In this document: positions 3,996 to 16,300 of the stretch, piece by piece
How positions within the stretch are numbered: the first letter of the stretch is position 1
Layout: each line of letters opens with the position of its first letter
The notes under the pieces: model-generated
Databases searched by the model: none
What the model saw: the letters and a program-made list of their open reading frames with translations, nothing else
Told to the model about the DNA's origin: nothing
Made by a program: the position numbers and the translations under genes
Source of the DNA: Promethearchaeota archaeon
Lineage (GTDB): Archaea; Asgardarchaeota; Heimdallarchaeia; Hodarchaeales; Hodarchaeaceae
Direction of reading: 5' to 3'
DNA length: 64,000 bases
Assembly (NCBI GenBank): GCA_048938105.1
Contig: JBHLMN010000001.1
Coordinates: 352,001-416,000 of the forward strand

Positions 3996-4895
3996 CTATT
4001 TGGAATCTTGATCTTTCTCTGTGATAACACGAGAAATCTCTGTTAAAGAATCTGTAAGTTTATTCTCGCCTTCCTCTTCTTCAATGATTTCTATCACATT
4101 AGAAACCGTTTTAAAAATGAAGTGTAAGTCTTTTACCTTAAATTCTACCTCCTCTTCTTCAAGTCCTGTTGGTAATGAAAATTCAGCCCAGATCTCAGTT
4201 CCAGAAAAACCTGTAAATGCAGGAGAGTTTTGGAGCTCTTCTTCTACTAAAACAGAGTCTTTCAATGTAAGATTCTTAAATTTCAGGTTGATAAAGCTAC
4301 CCTCAATATCTATGTCTACTTCAAGCCCATAAGATTCCGTTAAAGTTTCAACAATTGAACGTAACATACTAATGCTGTGAATACTAGTCTCTTGAGCATT
4401 TATCAAGCATAAATCCAGTTTTGGCCAGAGAAGAAATAGTTGGTCTCGTAAAAAATGGGTTTCAATAATTTGATCCATACTCCCCATAGGAAAAACCTCC
4501 TTTCCCTTTATTATTGTTCGCTTAAGAAGGTCTGAAGCTGAACGGCGAGTAGATGTTTGTTTTTCATGAATTATCTTCCAATAATCATCAATATAAACAT
4601 AAACATCAGGAAGGAGGGGTTCACCCTCCTGAAACGTTCTCATAAGGCCTTTTATTCGTTGAGAATAACAAAACATTGGTATTTGTTTCTTAGGTTCACG
4701 CTTCAATAATAAGACATCTAAATAACGACGATCAGTACATTTAGGACGTAGCATGTTGACAACTTTATTATTTTGACATTTTTCAAGACAGAATAACCTT
4801 CGATCACGAACCATTTCTTCCCAAAGAGTAACCCCTGATATTAGATTTAAAGTCTCCATTGCTATTTTTGGGGCTTCCTCTTCGTTCCATTTCAT
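3996..4895 (-). CDS. hypothetical protein
   Basis: 299-aa ORF with ATG start and host-like composition; no motif recognised. Confidence 0.6.
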   Translation of the reverse strand: MKWNEEEAPKIAMETLNLISGVTLWEEMVRDRRLFCLEKCQNNKVVNMLRPKCTDRRYLDVLLLKREPKKQIPMFCYSQRIKGLMRTFQEGEPLLPDVYVYIDDYWKIIHEKQTSTRRSASDLLKRTIIKGKEVFPMGSMDQIIETHFLRDQLFLLWPKLDLCLINAQETSIHSISMLRSIVETLTESYGLEVDIDIEGSFINLKFKNLTLKDSVLVEEELQNSPAFTGFSGTEIWAEFSLPTGLEEEEVEFKVKDLHFIFKTVSNVIEIIEEEEGENKLTDSLTEISRVITEKDQDSK

Positions 4896-5487
4896 CGCTT
4901 TTGGGATCTCCTTCTAGGACTGTTTGTGAGAAAAACTGAATAGATTACTTCTCTGTCGCTATATCGATTTTAGATGGTTCTACTTATATTAGGATCTATT
5001 TTTTTATTGATAAGATGTATGTGGATCTTTCAATATTTTAGGACACTTGCGTTATTAGATGTGTGATAATAGGTAGATGGTTTTATTGTTGAAATTATTT
5101 AGAATTTCTCTAATATTAACTAAATACAACTTTTCATAAAAATTTTGTCATATTCCAGTACCTTTTGTATGATGATTTAAAATTTCTAGTATAAGGGTAG
5201 AAATAAGGTAGAAATAAGCTTTTACAGTTAAGAGTTATTCAAAAGGAGGGCGACAAAAAAAGTTAACCAGTTTCTAAGGCCTTCTGAACAATAAGTAAAT
5301 GTAATTTCCCCCAAATTTTGTTAATTATTGAAGATATCTAGTAAAATTCTAATTAGAATCAAGAATTCGAAGCCTCAGAGTGCCTTTTATATAATTACTA
5401 GTGGGTTTAAGATGCTTTGCCCTATTAACTCTGGAAAAAATAAATATTTCCCTCTAATGTCCCATCCTTTGAAGAAATTCAGTTAGT

Positions 5488-5640
5488 TCTTCGATTATAA
5501 AAGATAGGTTATTAAAATTGATTGAGTTTTATTCAACTTTATTCACAGGAGGTCATCAACTAGCTCGTTACCGCCGCTAGTCTCCATCGTGTGGGATGTA
5601 ACCCGACATCCTCTATCCTGTCAGCGTTAACCGCGTTCAG
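5488..5640 (-). ncRNA. predicted omega-RNA overlapping the tnpB 3' end, plus flanking guide
   Basis: TnpB omega-RNAs are known to overlap the ORF end and the right end; GC-richer hairpins are seen here. Boundaries are inferred. Confidence 0.45.
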
Positions 5641-6830
5641 GAATGCTTTTTTCATAATATTGTACGCGCCATTCACATCAGCATTAATTATAGTGCCTTT
5701 CAGGGATTTGAATAGTCCTCTAGTAATTCTTCGGCCTAGGTATTTCCTATGGTGTTCGATTGACTCATTATCCAAAAAAGAACACTTGCTGGAAAAACTT
5801 TCCTCTTGTTTAATGACCATTATCCCCTGCTCTGCTGCTTTGTATTCCAGTTGTTGAATTAGCTTGTTATACGGAATGGAGACAAAATTCTGAGTGTTCT
5901 TTTTACCAATTTTGCAATTTTGCTTCCACTCGGGATTATACCCGATCACAATTGTTCCAATGTCATTCCTAACACAGTACTCAATGATTTTCTGGCTAGT
6001 CTTATGGAAAAATTCATTGATCTTTCTATTGCGTTTTATGGTCAACTTTTGCATAGTTTTCCCTGTCTTTATTCCCTGACGGTCATAGGTTGATTGAATT
6101 CGGGCGCGTTCTTTGTTATAGTATTGATTAATGGATTTGGCAATCCCACCTTTAATAACAAACGGTTTTAAACCATTGTTATTGACAGTAGTTATGAGAT
6201 TGCGAACCCCTATATCAATTGCAACGATTTTGTCTTTATTTAATGGTTTAGGACTGATTTCTTTCTGGTAGATCATTTCTACCACATAACCTACTCCTTT
6301 CGGAATAATTCGTACCTCTCTGATGTCAGTCCTATCAGGTAGTCTTGTTTTTATTTTCAAACCTACTTTTTTTGGAAATAACAGGAAATTATCTTTTAAT
6401 TTCACCTGTTGGTTGGTAAAAACCAACATAAACTCTCCATTCTTTGGTTTGTATCTAGGAGGATTCGGTCTTCCGTTAAATTTTGATTTGTCCTTCTTCC
6501 ATTCATTAATAGCTCCAAAAAAGGATTTCCAATTCCTATCAAGTATTTTTAAAACTTGTTGAGCTGTTTGAGCTGGAAGTAGGTGATAATTGTCTGAAGT
6601 TTTAAGAAGGTGATATAAAGAATTATACCGAATCCATTTATTATGATTGAAAAACTCTTGACGCACAAGATAGTTAGCCTCATTATAGAGATTTTTCGAT
6701 AAATGACATAAAAATCGTAATTGTGGACAGGATTTTAACCAAATTCGTTCAGTTCTGATAACGCTTTTGTATCTGCTCACGAATCATCCCTGAAAACGAT
6801 TATCATAATTTATAATACCTTAGCTTTTTA
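5508..6830 (-). mobile_element. non-autonomous (IS1341-like) tnpB-only element; ends approximate
   Basis: tnpB with no adjacent tnpA ORF. Hairpins at 5560-5580 (CTAGC..GCTAG) and 5521-5537 (TTGA..TCAA) precede a minus-strand ...TTTTAATAAC end at about 5508. Left end not resolved. Confidence 0.6.
5560..6780 (-). CDS. tnpB: TnpB RNA-guided endonuclease (IS200/IS605/IS607 OrfB)
   Basis: N-terminal SKNLYNEANY, RuvC-I AIDIGVRN, IVIGYN..WKQ, EESFSSKCSFLD, RuvC-III INADVNGAYNI. Confidence 0.92.
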   Translation of the reverse strand: MSRYKSVIRTERIWLKSCPQLRFLCHLSKNLYNEANYLVRQEFFNHNKWIRYNSLYHLLKTSDNYHLLPAQTAQQVLKILDRNWKSFFGAINEWKKDKSKFNGRPNPPRYKPKNGEFMLVFTNQQVKLKDNFLLFPKKVGLKIKTRLPDRTDIREVRIIPKGVGYVVEMIYQKEISPKPLNKDKIVAIDIGVRNLITTVNNNGLKPFVIKGGIAKSINQYYNKERARIQSTYDRQGIKTGKTMQKLTIKRNRKINEFFHKTSQKIIEYCVRNDIGTIVIGYNPEWKQNCKIGKKNTQNFVSIPYNKLIQQLEYKAAEQGIMVIKQEESFSSKCSFLDNESIEHHRKYLGRRITRGLFKSLKGTIINADVNGAYNIMKKAFLNAVNADRIEDVGLHPTRWRLAAVTS

Positions 6831-7334
6831 ATCACCTAATTACCATTTCTTTCTTGTAAGAATGAGATTATAAACTAAATATGATTAAAATATCGGAAAT
6901 TATTTTAGAAAATAAGCATCAATTTTAATAATACTTTTAGAAGTCTTGAAGAATCAAAAATTTATCTATATTGAATCTTTTTAAAATAATATACTCTCAA
7001 CTAGAAATCATCTCAAGTTCTTAATCATGTGTCATCTTTTGGACGTTAAACGAGAATCCATCGATCATTCCTTATAATGTACGAAAGGTATCCAATAATA
7101 GGTACGTGATGTACTAGCTCTGCTGCATTGTCTATTTTTTGAGTAATCCAGCTTCATCAAACATCTTTCTTAACACTCTCTCCATCTCTACTCCAATTCT
7201 CTTGGCAAATCTTTCTGAAAATTTGTCAAAAAGAAGGTTAAAGTTTACACAAAAATGAAAAATGATAATTTATTGATAAAAATATTCCTCTATATAAATA
7301 CACAACCTTCTGTACAGTTACACTTTTATCATAT

Positions 7335-7919
7335 TTAATTTAGAGATTCTTCGTTACCTTTTGAATAATCTTCATCAAATTCATCTGGTTCCCAGTTGAA
7401 GTTCTTCATGAAAAGATGTCCTATATTTTGAGAACTTTGATCTTCATTATTCATCAAGTGAATTTCGTTTTTAGTATAGAAGAAAGCTTCCATATGTAAT
7501 ACAAAGAAATCTGTTCCAAATTCTCTAGAAAATTTATTTTTTGAATGCGTGACTATCAATAATACACCTATTCCACCAAAAGTTTTAACAAATTCTTCTA
7601 GAAGTTCCCTGTCCCAATAATCTATAGTATTTATTTGAATATCCCAAGAATGATCACCTTGTATAAAATAATTGTTATGAAAGATTTTGTTTTTAAAATG
7701 TCCAGGTTTTTTATTTTCTAGTAATTCAAGAGTCCTGAATTTAAAATAAAGTTCTATCCAATTATCTTTTTTATATTCTATTCCTTTCTTTTTTAGTAAA
7801 TGTATTGCTTCCCTACTCTCTTGAATTGGAGGAAGACATGGAGGAATAACCCCTGATGACCCATATTCATTAAATAATACTTCCGTGATCATTTCAGCTT
7901 CTTTTCGTGGTGAAAGCAT
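7335..7919 (-). CDS. diverged, shortened paralog of the upstream restriction endonuclease
   Basis: Aligns with 8024..8782 throughout: SPRKEAE/SPREEAE, LFNEYGS/LFSEFGS, PGHFK/PGKFK, QGDHSWDI/KGEFSWDI, FNWEPDEFDEDY/FNDRPKDFTDDY. ATG at 7919 matches the paralog start. Confidence 0.65.
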   Translation of the reverse strand: MLSPRKEAEMITEVLFNEYGSSGVIPPCLPPIQESREAIHLLKKKGIEYKKDNWIELYFKFRTLELLENKKPGHFKNKIFHNNYFIQGDHSWDIQINTIDYWDRELLEEFVKTFGGIGVLLIVTHSKNKFSREFGTDFFVLHMEAFFYTKNEIHLMNNEDQSSQNIGHLFMKNFNWEPDEFDEDYSKGNEESLN

Positions 7920-8023
7920 AATTATAACACACATTTCTGGTATTAATAGAATTTTAGTGATGACTACGCTTTTTAAAATCTATATTTAATAGAATTTGAA
8001 TATACTGCAATTTAGGAGAGGAA

Positions 8024-8782
8024 TTAATCTTTTTCTGGGTAATCATCTGTAAAATCTTTGGGGCGGTCATTAAACATCCAAGCTCCTATGTAACACTTCT
8101 CTGTTCTCATCTGTTGTATATCCAATTGATATTTACCTTTCCTTGGAGCTCCACTTGGTAGTCTCATACCTTCTTGGAAAGTTGGGTCAGCCCACCCTTT
8201 TTCAAGGCCTTGTTTTAAATCTTCAAGTGTTAAATAAAAACCTAAGATTTCACCAATAAGAAAAGCAGTCTTTCTTACCTTTCTTGGTCGTTCTTCATCG
8301 ATTCGTTGCTTTGTATATTCACTTGAACCACCTTTGAATTTTTCATGCCATCTTACAAAACTTCCATCCTTATCGTATTTAAAATGAGTCTTTCCAACTA
8401 ATAACCCGTAACCCTCATTCTTTTCCAAATAATTATCGAAGAACGATTTATCAACAAAAGGAACCTCTGGTGATTCATATCTTGATGATTTGAGACGAAT
8501 ATCCCATGAAAATTCTCCTTTAATTAAAAATAACCTTTTCCATGGATCAAAATGTTTGAATTTTCCTGGGAGTTTAGAATCTAGAAGGTGACGTAAATAA
8601 TGTTTAACATAGAAACTTGGCCATTCTAAATGTTTATATGGGAGATTATTATTTCTTAACCATTGAATTGCTTCTTTTCCATCTACAAGTGGAGGTGAAC
8701 GAGATTTATTAGTATCAATTGATCCAAATTCACTGAAAAGAACATTAATTAATAGTTCTGCTTCCTCTCGTGGTGAAACCAT
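8024..8782 (-). CDS. putative type II restriction endonuclease (PD-(D/E)xK-like)
   Basis: Overlaps the MTase 3' end by 34 bp; candidate catalytic segment EW..FY...WDIRLK. Confidence 0.6.
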   Translation of the reverse strand: MVSPREEAELLINVLFSEFGSIDTNKSRSPPLVDGKEAIQWLRNNNLPYKHLEWPSFYVKHYLRHLLDSKLPGKFKHFDPWKRLFLIKGEFSWDIRLKSSRYESPEVPFVDKSFFDNYLEKNEGYGLLVGKTHFKYDKDGSFVRWHEKFKGGSSEYTKQRIDEERPRKVRKTAFLIGEILGFYLTLEDLKQGLEKGWADPTFQEGMRLPSGAPRKGKYQLDIQQMRTEKCYIGAWMFNDRPKDFTDDYPEKD

Positions 8783-9810
8783 TCCAACATCCCACGTTCT
8801 TTGTTCTTAACTTCAGAAATGTATACTTCATAAGCTTTTGGATACTTCCTTTTTAGATCATCAATTGACGGTAGCAAAGTTTTATACATACGGTAGTCTC
8901 TTCCTAAAGGTGTTATATCCAAATTATGTTCTATAATAGAACGCATCTTGTCATTAATCTCAAAACCAATAAAATGACGATAGTTAGCTATAGCTGCCTC
9001 TGCTGTAGTGCCATTGCCCATAAATGGATCTAAAATTATATCTCCAGGTTTTGAACTAAAATCAATACATCTCTGAATCAATTGAGCAGGAAGTTTAGTG
9101 CCGTTTTTCTTCTCCCCTGGGGAATAATCTCGTTTGATATCCCAAACATCAGTTGGATAATGTTCGATTTTGTTGAAATAATATTCTTTAGGGTCTTTTG
9201 CAAGAAACAATATATGATAATGACTAGTTACAAACTTAATTTTTGTGTAAACCCCGAATTGATATTGCCAAATTAAATGATTTAACACAATTAAACCTGA
9301 ATTTCTTAGGGATCTGAGAATATCCTCTAAATTTGTCCAGCCACTAAAAATATACGCAGATGAGGTTGGTTTCATGAGACGAGGAAGTTGAGAAATCCAC
9401 TGTTCTGTAAAATCATTATAATTACTTTGTATTTCTTTATAATCTTCAACTACAAAATCAGAATCCCGATTATAAATAGACTCTTTTCCTGAAAAATCAA
9501 GTCCAAAAGGAGGATCAGCAATGATTAAATCGATACTTTCTTTTGATAAAAGCTGCATTCCTTTAATACAATCTTGAAAATATGTTTGATCTATTTTAAA
9601 AGATCCAATTTGTTTAACTTGTTTGTTAAAAAGGTTTAATGCTTGGGACTTATCCCAATCTTCACTGGGGCGGAATCTAAAAGCAGCTAAACCAGGAATA
9701 TATTTATTCTTCCGTTTTCTCTTCTTCTCTTTGTTATATTGTATCATTTCTTGAGAACTCTGAGAAACCATACCTGTAGCCTTCAAATAAAACTCTCCCT
9801 TATTTATCAT
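8749..9810 (-). CDS. beta-class N4-C/N6-A DNA methyltransferase
   Basis: Motif IV DPPF precedes motif I LDPFMGNGT; TKLP..LI.RCI segment. Confidence 0.92.
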   Translation of the reverse strand: MINKGEFYLKATGMVSQSSQEMIQYNKEKKRKRKNKYIPGLAAFRFRPSEDWDKSQALNLFNKQVKQIGSFKIDQTYFQDCIKGMQLLSKESIDLIIADPPFGLDFSGKESIYNRDSDFVVEDYKEIQSNYNDFTEQWISQLPRLMKPTSSAYIFSGWTNLEDILRSLRNSGLIVLNHLIWQYQFGVYTKIKFVTSHYHILFLAKDPKEYYFNKIEHYPTDVWDIKRDYSPGEKKNGTKLPAQLIQRCIDFSSKPGDIILDPFMGNGTTAEAAIANYRHFIGFEINDKMRSIIEHNLDITPLGRDYRMYKTLLPSIDDLKRKYPKAYEVYISEVKNKERGMLEWFHHERKQNY

Positions 9811-10225
9811 TAATAAAGTTTTTCAGATGAATTGTATTTTTTGATCAGAGAAGCTCTATTTAACCAAAAAGCGTTTCTGTTAGCTACATATATATAATGG
9901 GTTGATCTAAGGGATAGATCGAGCTAAAAGACCCGAGACGTCATTAGTGTATAAAGATGATGATTCTAGATTATTATAGAGGAGTTTCTATTATTTCTAA
10001 TTCTTCAAACAAAAAAATCACTTTATTTTTCTAATATAAAAGAAGATATTACGTAAATAACATCTATTTAAAACTAAAAGTAACCATTTCATTTCCTAAA
10101 AGAGGTAGTTGACTTTACATCAACAATTAAATAAAGTATATACAGTCTTACATCCAATATAACTCAAAATTAATCTAGATTTTAGGTAGATATGAGAAAA
10201 ATTAGATTATAGATTTCCACATATA

Positions 10226-10612
10226 ATGGAAAAAAAACTGGAATCTATTCTGAATTGGAATGAGGATCTTTCTTCAATCCTAGAAATTATCAATCCAGAT
10301 CGTTGGAAAGTTTTTCAGGTATTATATGTTAAAAGAGAAAATGAAGAACAATTTCCTTATTTACAAATTACTCCTAAGCAATTTCAATATTTTATTGAAG
10401 TTCACGCAAAATATCGCCCTGTGGCAGAAGATATAGAACTTATGAGAGGATCATATCTTATGCTTGATCCTCAATGTCGGTTTTTTCAGAATTCAACAGG
10501 TGAATTGGTTTTTAGTCAGTTAATTCTAGATATTGGTATTATCCCTGCAAGTGTAGAAGTGGGATGGGATTTTAGAAAATTCATTAAACGTGGAGGAATT
10601 TACAAATGGTGA
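10226..10612 (+). pseudogene. viperin (RSAD2-like) C-terminal fragment lacking the radical-SAM N-terminus
   Basis: NPDRWKVFQVL..REN, MRGSYLMLDPQCRFF, ILDIG and KFIKRGGIYKW are viperin signatures. No CxxxCxxC motif was found upstream. Confidence 0.85.
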
Positions 10613-10737
10613 TTCAAGAATAGATTTGCCCAATCTGTGGTAATGTTATCGTTTTTATTGAAAGCTAAATGAGAAGAATATTTAAATGGTTTCGATTGTT
10701 GAAGAAACACCAGCAGTTGCTTGTTTTTTGAGATATT

Positions 10738-11511
10738 CTATGAATGTGGAAGTGGTAATGAATTCCCATTATTTCTCAAAAGTATTATTAATTCTTCTAG
10801 CGTGTTTATAATAAATGATTCCACCATCCCCATAATTTTTTTGAAACATTGAACCATTTCTTTGTCTTGAAACCCTGGATTAAAAAATGTGTCGCGTAAA
10901 ATCAATTGGGTTTGAGCAGAAAAAGAATAAGTTAATTGTGAGAAAGAAGGAGGAGTAAGATTTCCATAATTTGCGATATCCTCATGTGTTCCATGATTTC
11001 TAATCTTAATTAAGACATAATACCATCCATTAATATTCCAAGGTTCTATACCTATTTTTGTCTCCCATAGATTTCTTAGATTACATGATGTAGGTCTAGA
11101 TAGAAGTTTTGTAACAACATCACGAGGGTAATAGATGTCATGAGACATTGTATACTCGAACATCTCAACAATTAACTTTGAAATAATATCTATAGCGCTT
11201 TTAAGATTGTATGTTAGATTATCAATAGAAAAAACAATGATGAAAGGAATTTGATGTCTTTCTTTAATCTGAATTTTCCCCAACGTGATGGGAAATTGTT
11301 GTTTCACGTCAGGGTATTTTTTTGAAACATCATTCCAACGATAAATCAATGAAAGATCGACTTGATTAAGTAAACTGAAAAAAATTTCTGCAGCAGCCAC
11401 TTTTTGGTTTATTGAAAATAGATTATTCGTTATTTTTTCTTTTACAGGATGATCTAATGTTGATATTCCAGTAATAATATTGATTAGATCCTCTACTTTT
11501 TGTTGTAACAT
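10738..11511 (-). CDS. HEPN-domain protein (Cthe_2314-like), predicted RNase
   Basis: Rx4H motif (IRNHGTH), LKSAIDI helix, all-helical; coupled to the upstream gene by a TAATG overlap. Confidence 0.7.
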   Translation of the reverse strand: MLQQKVEDLINIITGISTLDHPVKEKITNNLFSINQKVAAAEIFFSLLNQVDLSLIYRWNDVSKKYPDVKQQFPITLGKIQIKERHQIPFIIVFSIDNLTYNLKSAIDIISKLIVEMFEYTMSHDIYYPRDVVTKLLSRPTSCNLRNLWETKIGIEPWNINGWYYVLIKIRNHGTHEDIANYGNLTPPSFSQLTYSFSAQTQLILRDTFFNPGFQDKEMVQCFKKIMGMVESFIINTLEELIILLRNNGNSLPLPHS

Positions 11512-14500
11512 TAACTTTCCTCCTCCAGAGATTCTTTTTCACGCTTTAAATCATATTTAACTTCTTGGATGAGTATTTGTCTTAGTTGAATTCCCCATTC
11601 ATCATCTCCAGGTTTATAATCTTCAAGAACTTTCTTTTTTCGCATTATTTCATGCATTCCACTAGTTCCTGTCACAAAACTCGCAATTATACTTTTCTTA
11701 ACTTCGGATTCTCCTTTTGAAGCCATGAAAACATGTTTAAATACTTCTAGAAGATTTTGATCAAACTTATACCAGTTCATAATCGTAGGTATCATCCATA
11801 AATTTTTTACCTGTAAAGAATTAATGAAATCTATCAAAAGCGATTTACCGAGATCAGTAAGAGGTTGTTCTACTCCAACTGAACCTGTAACAAGTTTTTG
11901 GAGTAACTGTGATATTATAATCTGTATTGAATAATCGGAAAGATTGTTTTTCAAATAATTCAATACTCTCCTAATATTTTCCTTTTGTATATCATTTGGT
12001 AATGAATTTACTTTGTCAAAATAAAGATGAAATCTCGGAATTGCGGAATAACCAGATCTTTGAAATTCTTCAGGATTTTCTTTCAAAAATTCAATTCTAT
12101 TTATGAAAAATTCTGTAGTGAAACATAAATGAACTGGAACTAGTTTTGAAAAAATGAAATCTATTTCGTAAGAAGCAAATCGTTCAAGATCAGGTATACT
12201 GATTAATTGATGAATTAGAATCTTTAAAAATGAGATATGTTCCTCTTCCCATGTTTCAAGTCTAGTATACAAATCAAAGATAGCTAAAATTACTTCTTCT
12301 TGTGATATATCCATATTTGTGAGAATTTCAAAGCAATAATTGGGATCAGATTTCCACCAAAGACTGAGAACTCCAATTATTTTTGATTGATAAATTTCAG
12401 GTTTTTCTTTTCTAATTTTACTAATGTTGCTTTTTAGAAGTTCTATATTTGTATCATGGATTTTTCTGGCACGAAAGGAATCTAATACTACTTCAATACC
12501 GTAAGGTGAGTTTAAAGAATATAAATATTCAATAAAATTATTAAATTGTTCCATGCGTGATATTCTTAATCCTGCAAGTATGTAACCAAATAAAGTGGGA
12601 TCAGGAAACTTTGATTTCTCTATTATTAATTTTATGGCTCCAATTGAATAATCGGGCAACATTTCACCCATATTCAATAAAAACTGCCCAAGAATAAAGT
12701 TCAGAGATTTATATGATTCGGATTTCGTGAATTTTACAAGAAACTCAACAAATTCTTCTTCTGAAAAGGAATTTATAATTTTTAATTGTACAGACCACTC
12801 AGATTTGCTTAATGTATGAAAAGAAAATCTTAAATCTTTCAAGATCTTAAGGAAGTTTAAATTTATATTTGAACTTATAATTTGGTTTAATTCATTTAAA
12901 GGATCGTCCCATTTCGTTGAATTCTTGCTTATTGTTTTTACGATAGAATTTATTCCCTTCACTATTGATAAAGAAGATGTGTTATCTTTAATTGTGTCGA
13001 TAAACGAGAAAATCATCTTAATTTCGGTATCAGTTGGGAAATCAGATGTTCCTAACTCATTAGAGAGATTATAATTCCAATGAAGTGTGGAACTCAATTC
13101 TGTGAGTCCTTTTTCAATATAACTCTCCTTATCAGTATTCCTTATAATATTAAGAAGTGTATCCAAGGATTTTTCCCGTAATTTTTCAATCGTAGGAGAT
13201 TTAGTTATTTTTCCAGTTTTTATTATAGCTTTATTCAAATCTTCTGGAGATATATATATTTCCCTAAATTCGATATTTAGAACCACACATAATAATTCAA
13301 AAATAATTTCCGCTTCTTTTGAGGAACTTAACTGGTTGAATGTTTTTTCAACCCATTCTAACGCTTTAAATTGATATTTCAACGGTTTCCTGGTATTATA
13401 CTCAAATTGTGATTTAAGAAGACTGATTGCCTTATCAGACACATATTTTGCTGAATCAAGACATAGGGGATAAAGTAAACTTAGAAATCTTTCGAAATAA
13501 AGGAAATGATACATAATATCATTAAGAACGTCAATTATACTTTTTTTATAGATGTCAGAACTTATTCCTGATGATTTGAAGCTTTCTTCATCTAATGATT
13601 CAGATTTACTGATTAAATTCTGCACCATCTCCAATGTAAAATCTGGTTTATAAAAAGCAATAACTTTGAGATAATCTAGGATATCAATTCTTTCTAGAAT
13701 GTTACCATCTTTACAAACTTTTTCGATAAAATCGAGAAAAGGATGTAGCATCGAAGTTTGAAAGTCAGTTTGAAGTTTGTAGTCAATTTTAATTATATTT
13801 CTTAGAACATTAAGCGGTCTAGCTTTTAAAAGTTCTAATATTATCCCTTGCCATGTTTTTGAAATTTTCCCAGTTTCATATTGAATATTGCTCCAAATGA
13901 CTATATCTGAGAGAATGGGAAGGTTGAATCGAATTTTACCTAAACTAATTCTAACTATTCTTTCTTCAGAAAATTGCTGTAATAAGTTCTCAAACCTGAT
14001 GACATTTAGATCTGCTAATTCAGCAATTTTTTCAAAAAGTTGATTATCATATACAGGAAGTGGCTCAACAAGCGCAATTATGGTTAAAATATTTTTTTGA
14101 GTTGCATCAAAATCCTTGGTGTATCTTTTAGCCAACTTTTCATAAAGATTCGCTGAAGGAAATGCAAGGTCATGTTTTTTTAAATCAATAAGGTATAGAA
14201 GGATACCAGGATTTCCTCGAGCTTGATTCCAGTACATTTGAAGTAGATAATCATCGGTAATATTAAAATTTTCACGGAGATGATGTGTGAAGTCTTTTCT
14301 AGACAATCTTTTTAACTCATGATCTTTAATTTCCAAATTCAATTCAATAATTTCGTAAATTACCTTCTGTTTTGATGCTGTATCGCAAAAAAGGAGAATT
14401 TTGATCTTTTGGTCTTCTTGAAAATTTCCTAATATGCGAACAAAGGTACGTAAGTTGTTGAAATGTTCTGTATCGTCTAAAATGATAAGAACATTTTTAT

Positions 14501-15254
14501 CAAAATTAATTTCACTAAAATGCTGATCTAACGATTCTGTGTCGGAAAGTAAATGATAAACATTCCAATTTTTTTTTTCGCTTATTTTTTTCGAAATTTC
14601 TATTCCTAATCGGCTTTTTCCTATTCCTTTATTTCCAAATACAACTAAGAGTAAACCACTGTCTTCAAGAAACTCTATAATAGATTTAACATCATTTTTT
14701 CTTCCATAAATTGGTTTACCATAAATAATATCATTCAATGATGAAAGGTATTCACTAGAAGGAATGAAAGCTGGTTGATATTGGAAAAAATATCGTGATC
14801 TGAGAAGTGGATATTTCATCAAAAGATTCTCAATGTCTTTTAACTCCCAGATTCTAAACTTAATATCTGACTGGTTTGAAAATAATTCATCTAATTGTTC
14901 TCTATCAGATTTCGTCAGGTTAACGTTTATTAAATAGATTATAAAATTCAATTCTTTAGAAATTAAATTCTTAGAATGTTGTTTTATAGCATTCTTAATT
15001 CTTTTTCTTCTTTGTTCTAATCCAAATTCAAAAGAAATAGTTTTGACCTCAAATCTCCACATTCCTTTTTCCTTCAAATACTCCCCTTGATAATAAGCAT
15101 CAAAACCACCATCTTTCAATTTACCATATGAAATCACATCAGGAGAGATCTCATGTTTAAGCAAATGAATACATAATTCTTCGAACTTATCCCAGTTAAT
15201 TCTCTCCCATTTGAAGATCGGTTTAGGATCCCACACATATTGAGCTTCTTTCAT
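11511..15254 (-). CDS. Avs-like antiviral STAND NTPase with N-terminal Mrr-like nuclease and long helical C-terminal region
   Basis: FEELC..LL / DGGFDA / FEVK nuclease motifs; Walker A GNKGIGKS; Walker B LIILDD; STAND GxP (RGNPG); about 800 aa of alpha-helical C-terminus. Confidence 0.8.
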   Translation of the reverse strand: MKEAQYVWDPKPIFKWERINWDKFEELCIHLLKHEISPDVISYGKLKDGGFDAYYQGEYLKEKGMWRFEVKTISFEFGLEQRRKRIKNAIKQHSKNLISKELNFIIYLINVNLTKSDREQLDELFSNQSDIKFRIWELKDIENLLMKYPLLRSRYFFQYQPAFIPSSEYLSSLNDIIYGKPIYGRKNDVKSIIEFLEDSGLLLVVFGNKGIGKSRLGIEISKKISEKKNWNVYHLLSDTESLDQHFSEINFDKNVLIILDDTEHFNNLRTFVRILGNFQEDQKIKILLFCDTASKQKVIYEIIELNLEIKDHELKRLSRKDFTHHLRENFNITDDYLLQMYWNQARGNPGILLYLIDLKKHDLAFPSANLYEKLAKRYTKDFDATQKNILTIIALVEPLPVYDNQLFEKIAELADLNVIRFENLLQQFSEERIVRISLGKIRFNLPILSDIVIWSNIQYETGKISKTWQGIILELLKARPLNVLRNIIKIDYKLQTDFQTSMLHPFLDFIEKVCKDGNILERIDILDYLKVIAFYKPDFTLEMVQNLISKSESLDEESFKSSGISSDIYKKSIIDVLNDIMYHFLYFERFLSLLYPLCLDSAKYVSDKAISLLKSQFEYNTRKPLKYQFKALEWVEKTFNQLSSSKEAEIIFELLCVVLNIEFREIYISPEDLNKAIIKTGKITKSPTIEKLREKSLDTLLNIIRNTDKESYIEKGLTELSSTLHWNYNLSNELGTSDFPTDTEIKMIFSFIDTIKDNTSSLSIVKGINSIVKTISKNSTKWDDPLNELNQIISSNINLNFLKILKDLRFSFHTLSKSEWSVQLKIINSFSEEEFVEFLVKFTKSESYKSLNFILGQFLLNMGEMLPDYSIGAIKLIIEKSKFPDPTLFGYILAGLRISRMEQFNNFIEYLYSLNSPYGIEVVLDSFRARKIHDTNIELLKSNISKIRKEKPEIYQSKIIGVLSLWWKSDPNYCFEILTNMDISQEEVILAIFDLYTRLETWEEEHISFLKILIHQLISIPDLERFASYEIDFIFSKLVPVHLCFTTEFFINRIEFLKENPEEFQRSGYSAIPRFHLYFDKVNSLPNDIQKENIRRVLNYLKNNLSDYSIQIIISQLLQKLVTGSVGVEQPLTDLGKSLLIDFINSLQVKNLWMIPTIMNWYKFDQNLLEVFKHVFMASKGESEVKKSIIASFVTGTSGMHEIMRKKKVLEDYKPGDDEWGIQLRQILIQEVKYDLKREKESLEEES

Positions 15255-15534
15255 TAACTTTCTTTAGCTCCTATGAGTTGTTAAATGTTATTTCTCTTTT
15301 TAGAGGGCCTAAAAACTTATCTCAGACTTTCCTCTTATACTTTATACGTTTTCCCATCCAATAAGCCTCATTTTAACTATTATTCTTCATCTAACCTAAG
15401 ATTTTTCTTCATTTTAACATATAAAAATGAGACATTGAATTCTCAATCTCATGTATGTTTGTAGTTATTTAAGTATATACTTGAAATTCAAAGTATAAAT
15501 ACTACTAATCGCGTTAAAGAGGTAGAGGTACAAT

Positions 15535-15864
15535 TCAGGGTAGTGAAATTCCTTTTTTTATCCTAATGTCACTATAATCTCTCTTTTTCATTCGATATAG
15601 GTAATAGAAGATAAATAATGTTCCTAGTCCAAAAAAAAGCAAAGCCAAGTCAGTAGTAACAATTAAATAATCAGTAACTTCATTTACAATTCCTGTCACA
15701 CTGATGAAAGCAAAAAAACCAGATATAGCATACATAATAGATACAAAATGCCTTAACCGAACAAGATAAAGATGTTCGTGCTTTAATGTCATAATTGCCG
15801 CAGTAATTGTTATAGCATTTAACAAACCTATATTGATGTTAAGAAGAATACCTAAATCAGTCAA
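15535..15864 (-). CDS. small membrane protein (about 3 TM)
   Basis: Hydrophobic segments in a 109-aa ORF. Confidence 0.5.
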   Translation of the reverse strand: MTDLGILLNINIGLLNAITITAAIMTLKHEHLYLVRLRHFVSIMYAISGFFAFISVTGIVNEVTDYLIVTTDLALLFFGLGTLFIFYYLYRMKKRDYSDIRIKKGISLP

Positions 15865-15876
15865 AAAAATTCTCTT

Positions 15877-16107
15877 CTATGCTTTAGTCATTGCCTTTAA
15901 AATCACTAAAATCCCGATGAATAAAAAAACTACTAATAGTACTTCCAAAGGGATACCCAGAGTCTCCACAACTCCAGAAAGATCAGTTGTAACTCCCTGA
16001 AAGAAGGCATTGAAATCAAATCCTTCAGTTTGTACAAACAAAACTGAAGCAACAATAAGAATTATTATCCCTAAGCCGAATAAATAGAAATGATGACTCC
16101 ATTTCAA
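15877..16107 (-). CDS. small membrane protein (2 TM)
   Basis: Two hydrophobic helices; 12 bp from the next ORF. Confidence 0.55.
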   Translation of the reverse strand: MKWSHHFYLFGLGIIILIVASVLFVQTEGFDFNAFFQGVTTDLSGVVETLGIPLEVLLVVFLFIGILVILKAMTKA

Positions 16108-16300
16108 GTTTTAATTTCTCCCATGTTTATTTTATCTCACATTAAGTTTTGAATTGGATATATTCTACAGTAGTAATCTCTCATCTTACGTTATCTCGAA
16201 ATTGTCTTCAGAAATCAAGAATCAGTTCCAAATATTTTTCATGTTCCCAAATTATTTTTACGATTTTTCCCAATTTTTTTCCATCTTGATATTTACATAA

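Follow-up and report, generated by a model that had tools for sequence, protein, structure and literature searches.

We suggest, with a probability of about 60%, that two adjacent genes on contig JBHLMN010000001.1 of a Promethearchaeota archaeon (assembly GCA_048938105.1) form a two-gene, Avs-like antiviral module that was horizontally acquired into a defence island, and in which a small HEPN protein serves as a trans effector. The genes lie in the window analysed here, a stretch of 64,000 nucleotides (nt; positions 352,001 to 416,000 of the contig) whose first letter is position 1 in all coordinates below. The larger gene encodes P0001, a protein of 1247 amino acids (aa) with a predicted restriction endonuclease (REase) domain, a STAND-type NTPase and helical repeats, and the smaller one encodes its 257-aa HEPN-like partner, P0002. 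The gene structure, translational coupling, intact motifs, family membership, pairing and island context that carry this reading are all shown by the present analysis. The pair is probably an unnamed two-gene antiviral system.

STAND/NLR-type receptors are among the main means by which prokaryotic immune systems recognise protein patterns, and in the characterised Avs proteins the effector lies within the same polypeptide. If our reading is correct, a DNase in cis combined with a separately encoded HEPN partner would make it possible to test whether a STAND receptor can control an effector in trans, a logic nearer to that of eukaryotic NLRs signalling to downstream executors. It would also supply the first genomic context for the Cthe_2314-like HEPN family. 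The value for the archaeal host is modest, as the module looks like imported, strain-specific cargo.

Both reading frames are open throughout (1247 and 257 codons), and all catalytic and nucleotide-binding residues are intact. At the junction of the two genes, GGAGGAGGAAAGTTAATG, the last A of the TAA stop codon doubles as the A of the following ATG, and a Shine-Dalgarno-like purine run, GGAGGAGGA, lies just upstream of this TAATG stop/start overlap. An earlier note, made from the letters of this DNA, had described two open reading frames (ORFs) with a 1-nt TAATG overlap at 11511 and an RNHGTH string of the Rx4H type in the smaller product. The ORFs have the coordinates, strand and lengths claimed for them, the junction sequence bears out the overlap, and the string stands at residues 171-176 of P0002. 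The domain assignments of the same note also hold: the REase-STAND-helical architecture at the family level, through Pfam, PADLOC-domain and PDB profile matches, and the HEPN identity of the small protein through its homologues, by a Pfam match of the homologue P0158, BLASTP and hhalign. Neither P0001 nor P0002 reaches any curated threshold (Pfam, NCBIfam, PHROGs, PADLOC); consequently, the domain calls draw on family-level evidence. Scans of the window for sigma-70 promoters and intrinsic terminators were uninformative, the host being an archaeon. An inactive relic might be suspected from the GC content of the pair (0.294, against 0.339 for the whole window), from the long branch on which P0001 sits and from a decapitated viperin gene 125 nt from the pair's 3′ end, but the open frames, the intact catalytic and nucleotide-binding residues and the preserved coupling speak against decay, which we consider highly improbable.

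A full HMMER search of 1.84 billion representatives with P0001 retrieved 273 homologues at E ≤ 1e-3 and 77 at E ≤ 1e-10, the best among the sampled ones that retain the nuclease having an E of 1.7e-26. Many have a length of 1250-1310 aa; their alignments with P0001 begin near residue 15, end near residues 1100-1195 and show 21-25% identity. Word-index searches with P0001 and P0002 retrieved nothing but the queries themselves, no P0001 homologue was present in the 39 related genomes examined, and phmmer against the PDB returned nothing useful for either protein. Single-protein scans of genome contigs with P0002 and with P0005, a homologue of P0001, found no relatives; tblastn of P0005 against plasmids gave two matches only, confined to the NTPase part.

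The N-terminal region of P0001 is a predicted Mrr-like PD-(D/E)xK nuclease domain (Table 1). Across an alignment of 30 sequences, D52, G57, G64 and K71 never vary and D48 and Q/E69 hardly do, which marks D48, D52 and E69-x-K71 as candidate catalytic residues. Mrr_cat is the sole recurring Pfam match of this domain (5 of 30 sequences, best E 6.7e-4; 0.077 for P0001 itself), while the REase part of the PADLOC model Aga_REase-TIR matches 13 of 38 family members (best E 2.3e-11). A profile of the REase domain found nothing significant in the PDB.

The central NTPase carries a Walker A and a Walker B motif that fit the GxxxxGK[ST] and hhhhD[DE] patterns of the STAND NTPase superfamily, followed by a GxP-like RGNPG. 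In an alignment of 38 sequences, G212 and K213 are invariant, and R185, G210, D260 and P349, the proline of the GxP-like motif, are nearly so. P0001 by itself reaches 18.9 bits with nSTAND5, below the cut-off of 34. Among the 38 family members, Pfam matches at E ≤ 0.01 are to AAA_16 (34), nSTAND5 (32), NB-ARC (16), nSTAND3 (14) and ATPase_2 (14). Searched against the PDB, the NTPase region of the family profile matches small subunits of the RFC clamp loader (1e-6) and, at 3e-4 to 8e-4, NB-ARC/CNL resistance proteins.

The long C-terminal region gives HEAT_2 or HEAT matches in 3-4 of 38 family members, and a PDB search matches profile positions 880-1033 to the HEAT-like repeats of AlkD and to designed armadillo-repeat proteins (E 2e-4 to 6e-4). 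These similarities support an alpha-solenoid, which is presumably the sensor. At the family level, sequence comparison thus supports a layout of Mrr-like nuclease, STAND-type NTPase and helical repeats.

P0002 is a probable HEPN protein of the Cthe_2314-like group, for which the sequence evidence is good and the structural evidence suggestive. Partner genes adjoin eight of the P0001 homologues whose loci were inspected, and the partner sequences were read at six of these; five align with P0002, and the sixth, P0162, does so only weakly. BLASTP links P0002 to P0158 (E 6e-6, 25% over 155 residues), P0159 (6.7e-6) and P0160 (1e-3), and a BLAST network joins P0002, P0158, P0159, P0152, P0160 and P0157. 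When P0002 is compared by hhalign with a partner profile built without it, the probability is 92.9% (E 3.6e-7, 146 columns). P0162 is only weakly linked (E 1e-3), with its motifs still in register. A word-index search with P0152 returned only three close relatives. P0158 passes the Pfam model PF18730 (HEPN_Cthe2314) with 28.8 bits against a cut-off of 27.1 (E 1.5e-6), over the region that holds both motifs.

These two motifs are shared among the partners. The pattern [ILV]-R-[NH]-x-x-x-H is found in 9 of 10 partner sequences and its histidine in all ten, as is the acidic residue of an [ST]xx[DE] motif that lies 62-83 residues ahead of RNxxxH. An Rx4H string arises in 17% of shuffles of P0002 and is weak evidence by itself; it is meaningful because it is conserved in register across homologous partners. 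HEPN domains are four-helix up-down bundles in which an insert separates helices 2 and 3, and the arginine of their Rx4-6H motif is commonly followed by a polar residue. In the published description of HEPN domains, the Rx4-6H motif sits where helix 3 ends, and a conserved acidic residue lies in helix 2 (PMC3710099). An AlphaFold2 model of P0002 from a 10-sequence alignment (predicted local distance difference test, pLDDT, 63; predicted template modelling score, pTM, 0.65) places helices at residues 22-50, 87-122 (holding D108), 163-171 (after an insert, and ending at R171) and 216-249, and the agreement of this modelled topology with the published description is suggestive. The single-sequence model (pLDDT 34) was unusable. 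Searched against the PDB, the partner profile matched only an interferon, which we dismissed as chance.

The pairing of a REase-STAND gene with a small gene is conserved. We examined the genomic context of 12 P0001 homologues, chosen by rank, and at 8 of them a same-strand gene of 250-293 aa either starts no more than 4 nt after the STAND stop codon or overlaps it by 7-8 nt. The partners with sequences are P0152 (275 aa, junction with P0005 within 4 nt), P0158 (at least 250 aa, cut by the contig end, 4-nt gap after P0010), P0159 (293 aa, 4-nt gap after P0013), P0157 (263 aa, 8-nt overlap with P0012; L022 4040-4831), P0160 (268 aa, 8-nt overlap with P0014) and P0162 (274 aa, 7-nt overlap with P0057); genes of 275 and 278 aa lie within 4 nt of P0006 and P0009. 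Among the best-scoring homologues that retain the nuclease end, the partner was present in all seven sampled. The earlier note had proposed that the two genes belong together and had not recognised their pairing as a named system: the nearest STAND homologues do carry a homologous small gene directly downstream, and no PADLOC 2.0 model matches P0001, P0002 or the pair as a system, with only isolated domains matched in family members.

Pair-bearing loci range in GC content from 0.29 to 0.52 and differ in their flanks, and hence represent independent occurrences. A FastTree phylogeny of the family, rooted at its midpoint, distributes the partner-bearing members over at least three lineages that lie on either side of the root. 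This tree calls for caution, since P0001 forms a long branch whose placement is unreliable. Unrelated systems are packed tightly in defence islands, and the wider STAND family is also found without the partner, as might be expected if P0001 and P0002 were functionally independent defence genes that are merely adjacent. However, the two families recur together, with gaps of at most 4 nt or overlaps, in at least six sequenced loci of varied composition and flanks, and every member of the partner family that we met had a STAND gene beside it, though the family was reached only through STAND loci. We therefore see very little chance that the two genes act independently. Some loci have further same-strand genes after the partner, namely a 364-aa Cys-rich protein in L003/L004 (L003 9237-10331) and a 426-aa protein and an HNH_2-like 284-aa protein in L026 (5662-7835); such extra genes are no conserved feature of the loci.

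Avs4 is the closest functional analogue of P0001. This antiviral STAND protein of type 4 is encoded by a single gene, combines an Mrr-like nuclease, STAND and TPR, and senses the phage portal protein. P0001 resembles it in the order of an N-terminal Mrr-like PD-(D/E)xK effector, a central STAND NTPase and a long C-terminal helical sensor, in its size of about 1250 aa, and in occurring, as Avs4 does, in defence islands and on mobile elements. Further, the 30-sequence alignment gives P0001 the Mrr-like N-terminus with a D...(D/E/Q)xK core that characterises Avs4. The repeats of the P0001 family look HEAT/ARM-like, whereas those of Avs4 are TPR, and the single-gene Avs4 has no counterpart to the conserved, translationally coupled HEPN-like second gene. 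We rejected P0001 as an Avs4 by sequence, since PADLOC gave no Avs4 match for it or for 38 homologues. The PADLOC Avs models yielded a single weak Avs2 P-loop match, in 1 of 38 family members, and PDB searches with P0001 and the family profile found no Avs chain. In some family members the N-terminal REase is similar to the PADLOC models PDC-S73 and the Argonaute-associated Aga_REase-TIR (1.3e-13 over residues 1-220 of P0013, including the NTPase start for PDC-S73), but this likeness is at the domain level and covers less than 20% of the protein, and P0001 itself has no PADLOC match.

The Cthe_2314-like HEPN family has been surveyed as bacterial, with architectures and operons given as 'None detected' (PF18730; Anantharaman et al. 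2013, PMC3710099). The partners share with this family the gathering-score match of P0158 and the conserved Rx4H motif, yet the relatives described here consistently have a REase-STAND gene as their coupled neighbour, and one copy comes from an archaeon. STAND proteins with fused HEPN effectors have also been described (PMC3710099), as has a two-gene nSTAND2 system with HEPN or GT4 effectors, in which the HEPN is on an inactive STAND (Kaur et al. 2021, PMC8195603). The present pair likewise joins a STAND NTPase and a HEPN RNase in a predicted conflict system. It differs in that the HEPN is free-standing and the STAND protein has its own predicted DNase domain and intact NTP-binding motifs. In the literature searched (nSTAND5, Cthe_2314 contexts, and STAND and HEPN two-gene systems), we found no name for the pair and no report of a REase-STAND coupled to a free-standing HEPN of the Cthe_2314-like kind; the coverage was incomplete, and novelty is not proven by it. 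A preprint (10.64898/2026.01.04.697583) catalogues more than 90 STAND families, and the P0001 family may already be among them without its partner having been noted.

From these likenesses we infer that P0001 senses a ligand and oligomerises, that both proteins act as nucleases and make contact with each other, and that the function is antiviral. The effector-NTPase-repeat layout is that of experimentally shown Avs proteins, and for Avs3 and Avs4 it is established that ligand binding and ATP-dependent oligomerisation juxtapose the nuclease domains, whereupon DNA is cut. By analogy, the C-terminal HEAT/ARM-like solenoid of P0001 most likely binds a viral protein. Ligand and ATP would then drive P0001 to oligomerise and bring its N-terminal PD-(D/E)xK domains together, and the assembled Mrr-like nuclease domains would cut DNA. 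P0002 is most likely a second effector that works in trans, an RNase that would stay inactive until recruited to, or dimerised on, the activated STAND assembly, and DNA and RNA would both be damaged, which amounts to abortive infection. Activation of the HEPN RNase by STAND oligomerisation is conjecture on our part; a complex prediction for P0001 residues 505-1247 with P0002 scored 0.00, a result that gives no answer and says nothing either way about binding. We speculate, more tentatively, that the pair stands for a widespread, unnamed two-gene Avs-like family in which the REase-STAND protein, once activated and oligomeric, recruits a free-standing HEPN RNase and turns it on, so that one recognition event releases both a DNase and an RNase, and that mobile elements have spread this family across bacteria until it reached an archaeon.

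The small protein might instead be a regulator or adaptor of the STAND protein, such as a brake, a co-sensor or a toxin-antitoxin-like partner, with a HEPN fold that serves for binding and not for RNA cleavage. P0001 is already equipped with an effector domain whose catalytic residues are intact, several HEPN families have degenerate Rx4-6H motifs (PMC3710099), and the lineage of P0157 has lost the motif arginine yet retains a tightly overlapping gene. This arginine-less homologue, together with the partner-less relatives, keeps such a role in consideration. On the other side, R[NH]xxxH and the helix-2 acidic residue persist together in 9 of 10 partners, from lineages less than 25% identical to one another, which is the pattern predicted by selection on catalysis. 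We regard a purely regulatory partner as unlikely.

Several observations weigh against an Avs-like module with a HEPN trans effector. No PADLOC 2.0 defence model recognises either protein as a whole. The best solved-structure matches of the NTPase are RFC clamp-loader subunits, which rank above NLR-type NB-ARC. P0002 itself matches no HEPN model, PF18730 included. Its structural model is only moderate, with pLDDT below 50 around the RNHGTH motif; the structural matches of this model fall within the noise range of the tool for helical bundles, and a Foldseek search of the alignment-based model against the PDB found only generic long-helix proteins (E ≥ 0.1). P0157 reads WGNIKH in place of R[NH]xxxH, with the 8-nt gene overlap kept; Arg-dependent RNase chemistry is thus not universal, and the partner may be non-catalytic. 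Two of the eight partner calls, those for P0006 and P0009, were made from gene size and position alone. Four of the 12 homologues (P0003, P0019, P0020 and P0024) have no partner, and neither do five more distant homologues of the same phylum.

The partner-less loci differ among themselves. No gene lies downstream of P0020, an unrelated membrane protein is encoded downstream of P0024, and unrelated genes follow P0019; tblastn and a hidden Markov model of the partner alignment detected no decayed partner genes downstream of the partner-less homologues. At the P0003 locus (L005 3328-13269), an insertion sequence (IS) element abuts the 5′ end of the STAND gene, and downstream of that gene come a 994-aa gene and, after it, a TPR-HEPN_LA2681 gene. 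The nuclease domain of P0003 is missing because the DDE transposase gene adjoins its 5′ end. HEPN_LA2681 is a different HEPN family that here accompanies a related STAND.

The pair lies in a variable island. In G009, a complete genome of the same genus, the ribonucleotide reductase gene directly adjoins the orthologue of window positions 3996-4895 (locus L031). Since the intervening 11.4 kb or so are missing from G009, window positions of about 4896-16300 represent an insertion. In a further genome, G001, other genes (217, 800, 151, 236 and 358 aa) occupy the same slot (locus L032), which marks it as a variable hotspot. At the edge of the island in the window is a TnpB/OrfB_IS605 gene whose product has a Cas12f-like TNB domain. 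A DNA methylase gene is followed by putative REase-like ORFs of 252 and 199 aa that match no known family or Pfam model, and the three presumably form a restriction-modification (R-M) unit. The viperin gene lacks its radical-SAM half and is a remnant inside the defence island.

Elsewhere, homologue pairs adjoin serine recombinases, integrases, excisionase-like helix-turn-helix (HTH) genes, HTH regulators, a primase and type IV secretion (conjugation) genes. This mobile-element context indicates that the module is horizontally acquired cargo. Specifically, the pair looks like mobile-element cargo that reached this archaeon horizontally. The nearest relatives are proteins of about 24% identity, encoded on metagenomic contigs that also bear integrase, recombinase or conjugation genes. 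Of 399 genomes of the phylum, 10 matched the STAND family profile, mostly partially or distantly, and none of those examined has the partner. The partner profile matched only the window's own genome and none of the 398 others. The earlier note had also seen relevance to NLR ancestry in this pair, which is not borne out, as an imported, strain-specific cargo with such distant relatives and no partner found in the other genomes of the phylum searched says little on the ancestry of eukaryotic NLRs.

The recombinases, integrases, excisionase-like HTH and conjugation genes beside homologue pairs, and the strain-specific insertion beside a TnpB gene in the window, would also suit a module by which mobile elements maintain themselves or compete, or another non-antiviral role (such as addiction, keeping out rival plasmids or a STAND with a regulatory function), which here would be an island passenger. 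True defence systems, however, are usually carried by mobile elements, the island otherwise consists of defence genes (the R-M methylase and the viperin remnant), and P0001 has the layout of experimentally shown Avs proteins. A role confined to mobile-element maintenance or rivalry is, in our judgement, decidedly unlikely, and an antiviral module remains the reading we prefer.

Table 1. Coordinates of the gene pair, its predicted domains and motifs, and neighbouring features in the window.
Feature	Position	Strand	Basis
P0001 gene, 1247-aa REase-STAND-helical repeat protein	11511..15254	-	ORF and translation
P0001 residues ~14-160, predicted Mrr-like PD-(D/E)xK nuclease domain	14775..15215	-	30-sequence alignment; Pfam and PADLOC matches
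P0001 D48, D52, E69-x-K71, candidate catalytic residues	15042-15113	-	Conservation in 30-sequence alignment
P0001 residues ~182-360, STAND-type P-loop NTPase	14175..14711	-	Motifs and family-level matches
P0001 207-214, Walker A GNKGIGKS	14613-14636	-	Motif
P0001 256-261, Walker B LIILDD	14472-14489	-	Motif
P0001 residues ~361-1247, C-terminal helical HEAT/ARM-like region	11514..14174	-	Pfam and PDB profile matches
P0002 gene, 257-aa HEPN-like partner	10738..11511	-	ORF; coupled to P0001 by TAATG overlap
P0002 S105-A-I-D108, [ST]xx[DE] motif in long second helix	11188..11199	-	Conserved in partners
P0002 R171-N-H-G-T-H176, candidate HEPN catalytic motif	10984..11001	-	Conserved in partners
Variable island carrying the pair, 11.4 kb	~4896..16300	.	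Comparison with G009 and G001
TnpB/OrfB_IS605 gene, Cas12f-like TNB domain, island edge	5560-6780	-	Pfam/NCBIfam
Presumed R-M unit: methylase and two ORFs	7335-9810	-	
N6/N4 DNA methylase	8749-9810	-	PF01555, E 8.6e-37
Prokaryotic viperin, C-terminal half only	10226-10612	+	NF038283 positions 165-280 of 281, E 1.2e-29
Two small predicted membrane ORFs, 109 and 76 aa, upstream of STAND gene	15535-16107	-	
Ribonucleotide reductase ORF with inteins, 2570 aa	16301-24013	-	

The two small membrane ORFs upstream of the STAND gene had no counterpart in the homologue loci. The ribonucleotide reductase ORF that borders the island contains Intein_splicing matches in four stretches and LAGLIDADG_3 in three, together with HNH_3 and NUMOD3, and its G009 orthologue is only 1188 aa long. 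Among genes of archaeal type, we noted an archaeosine TGT with a PUA domain.

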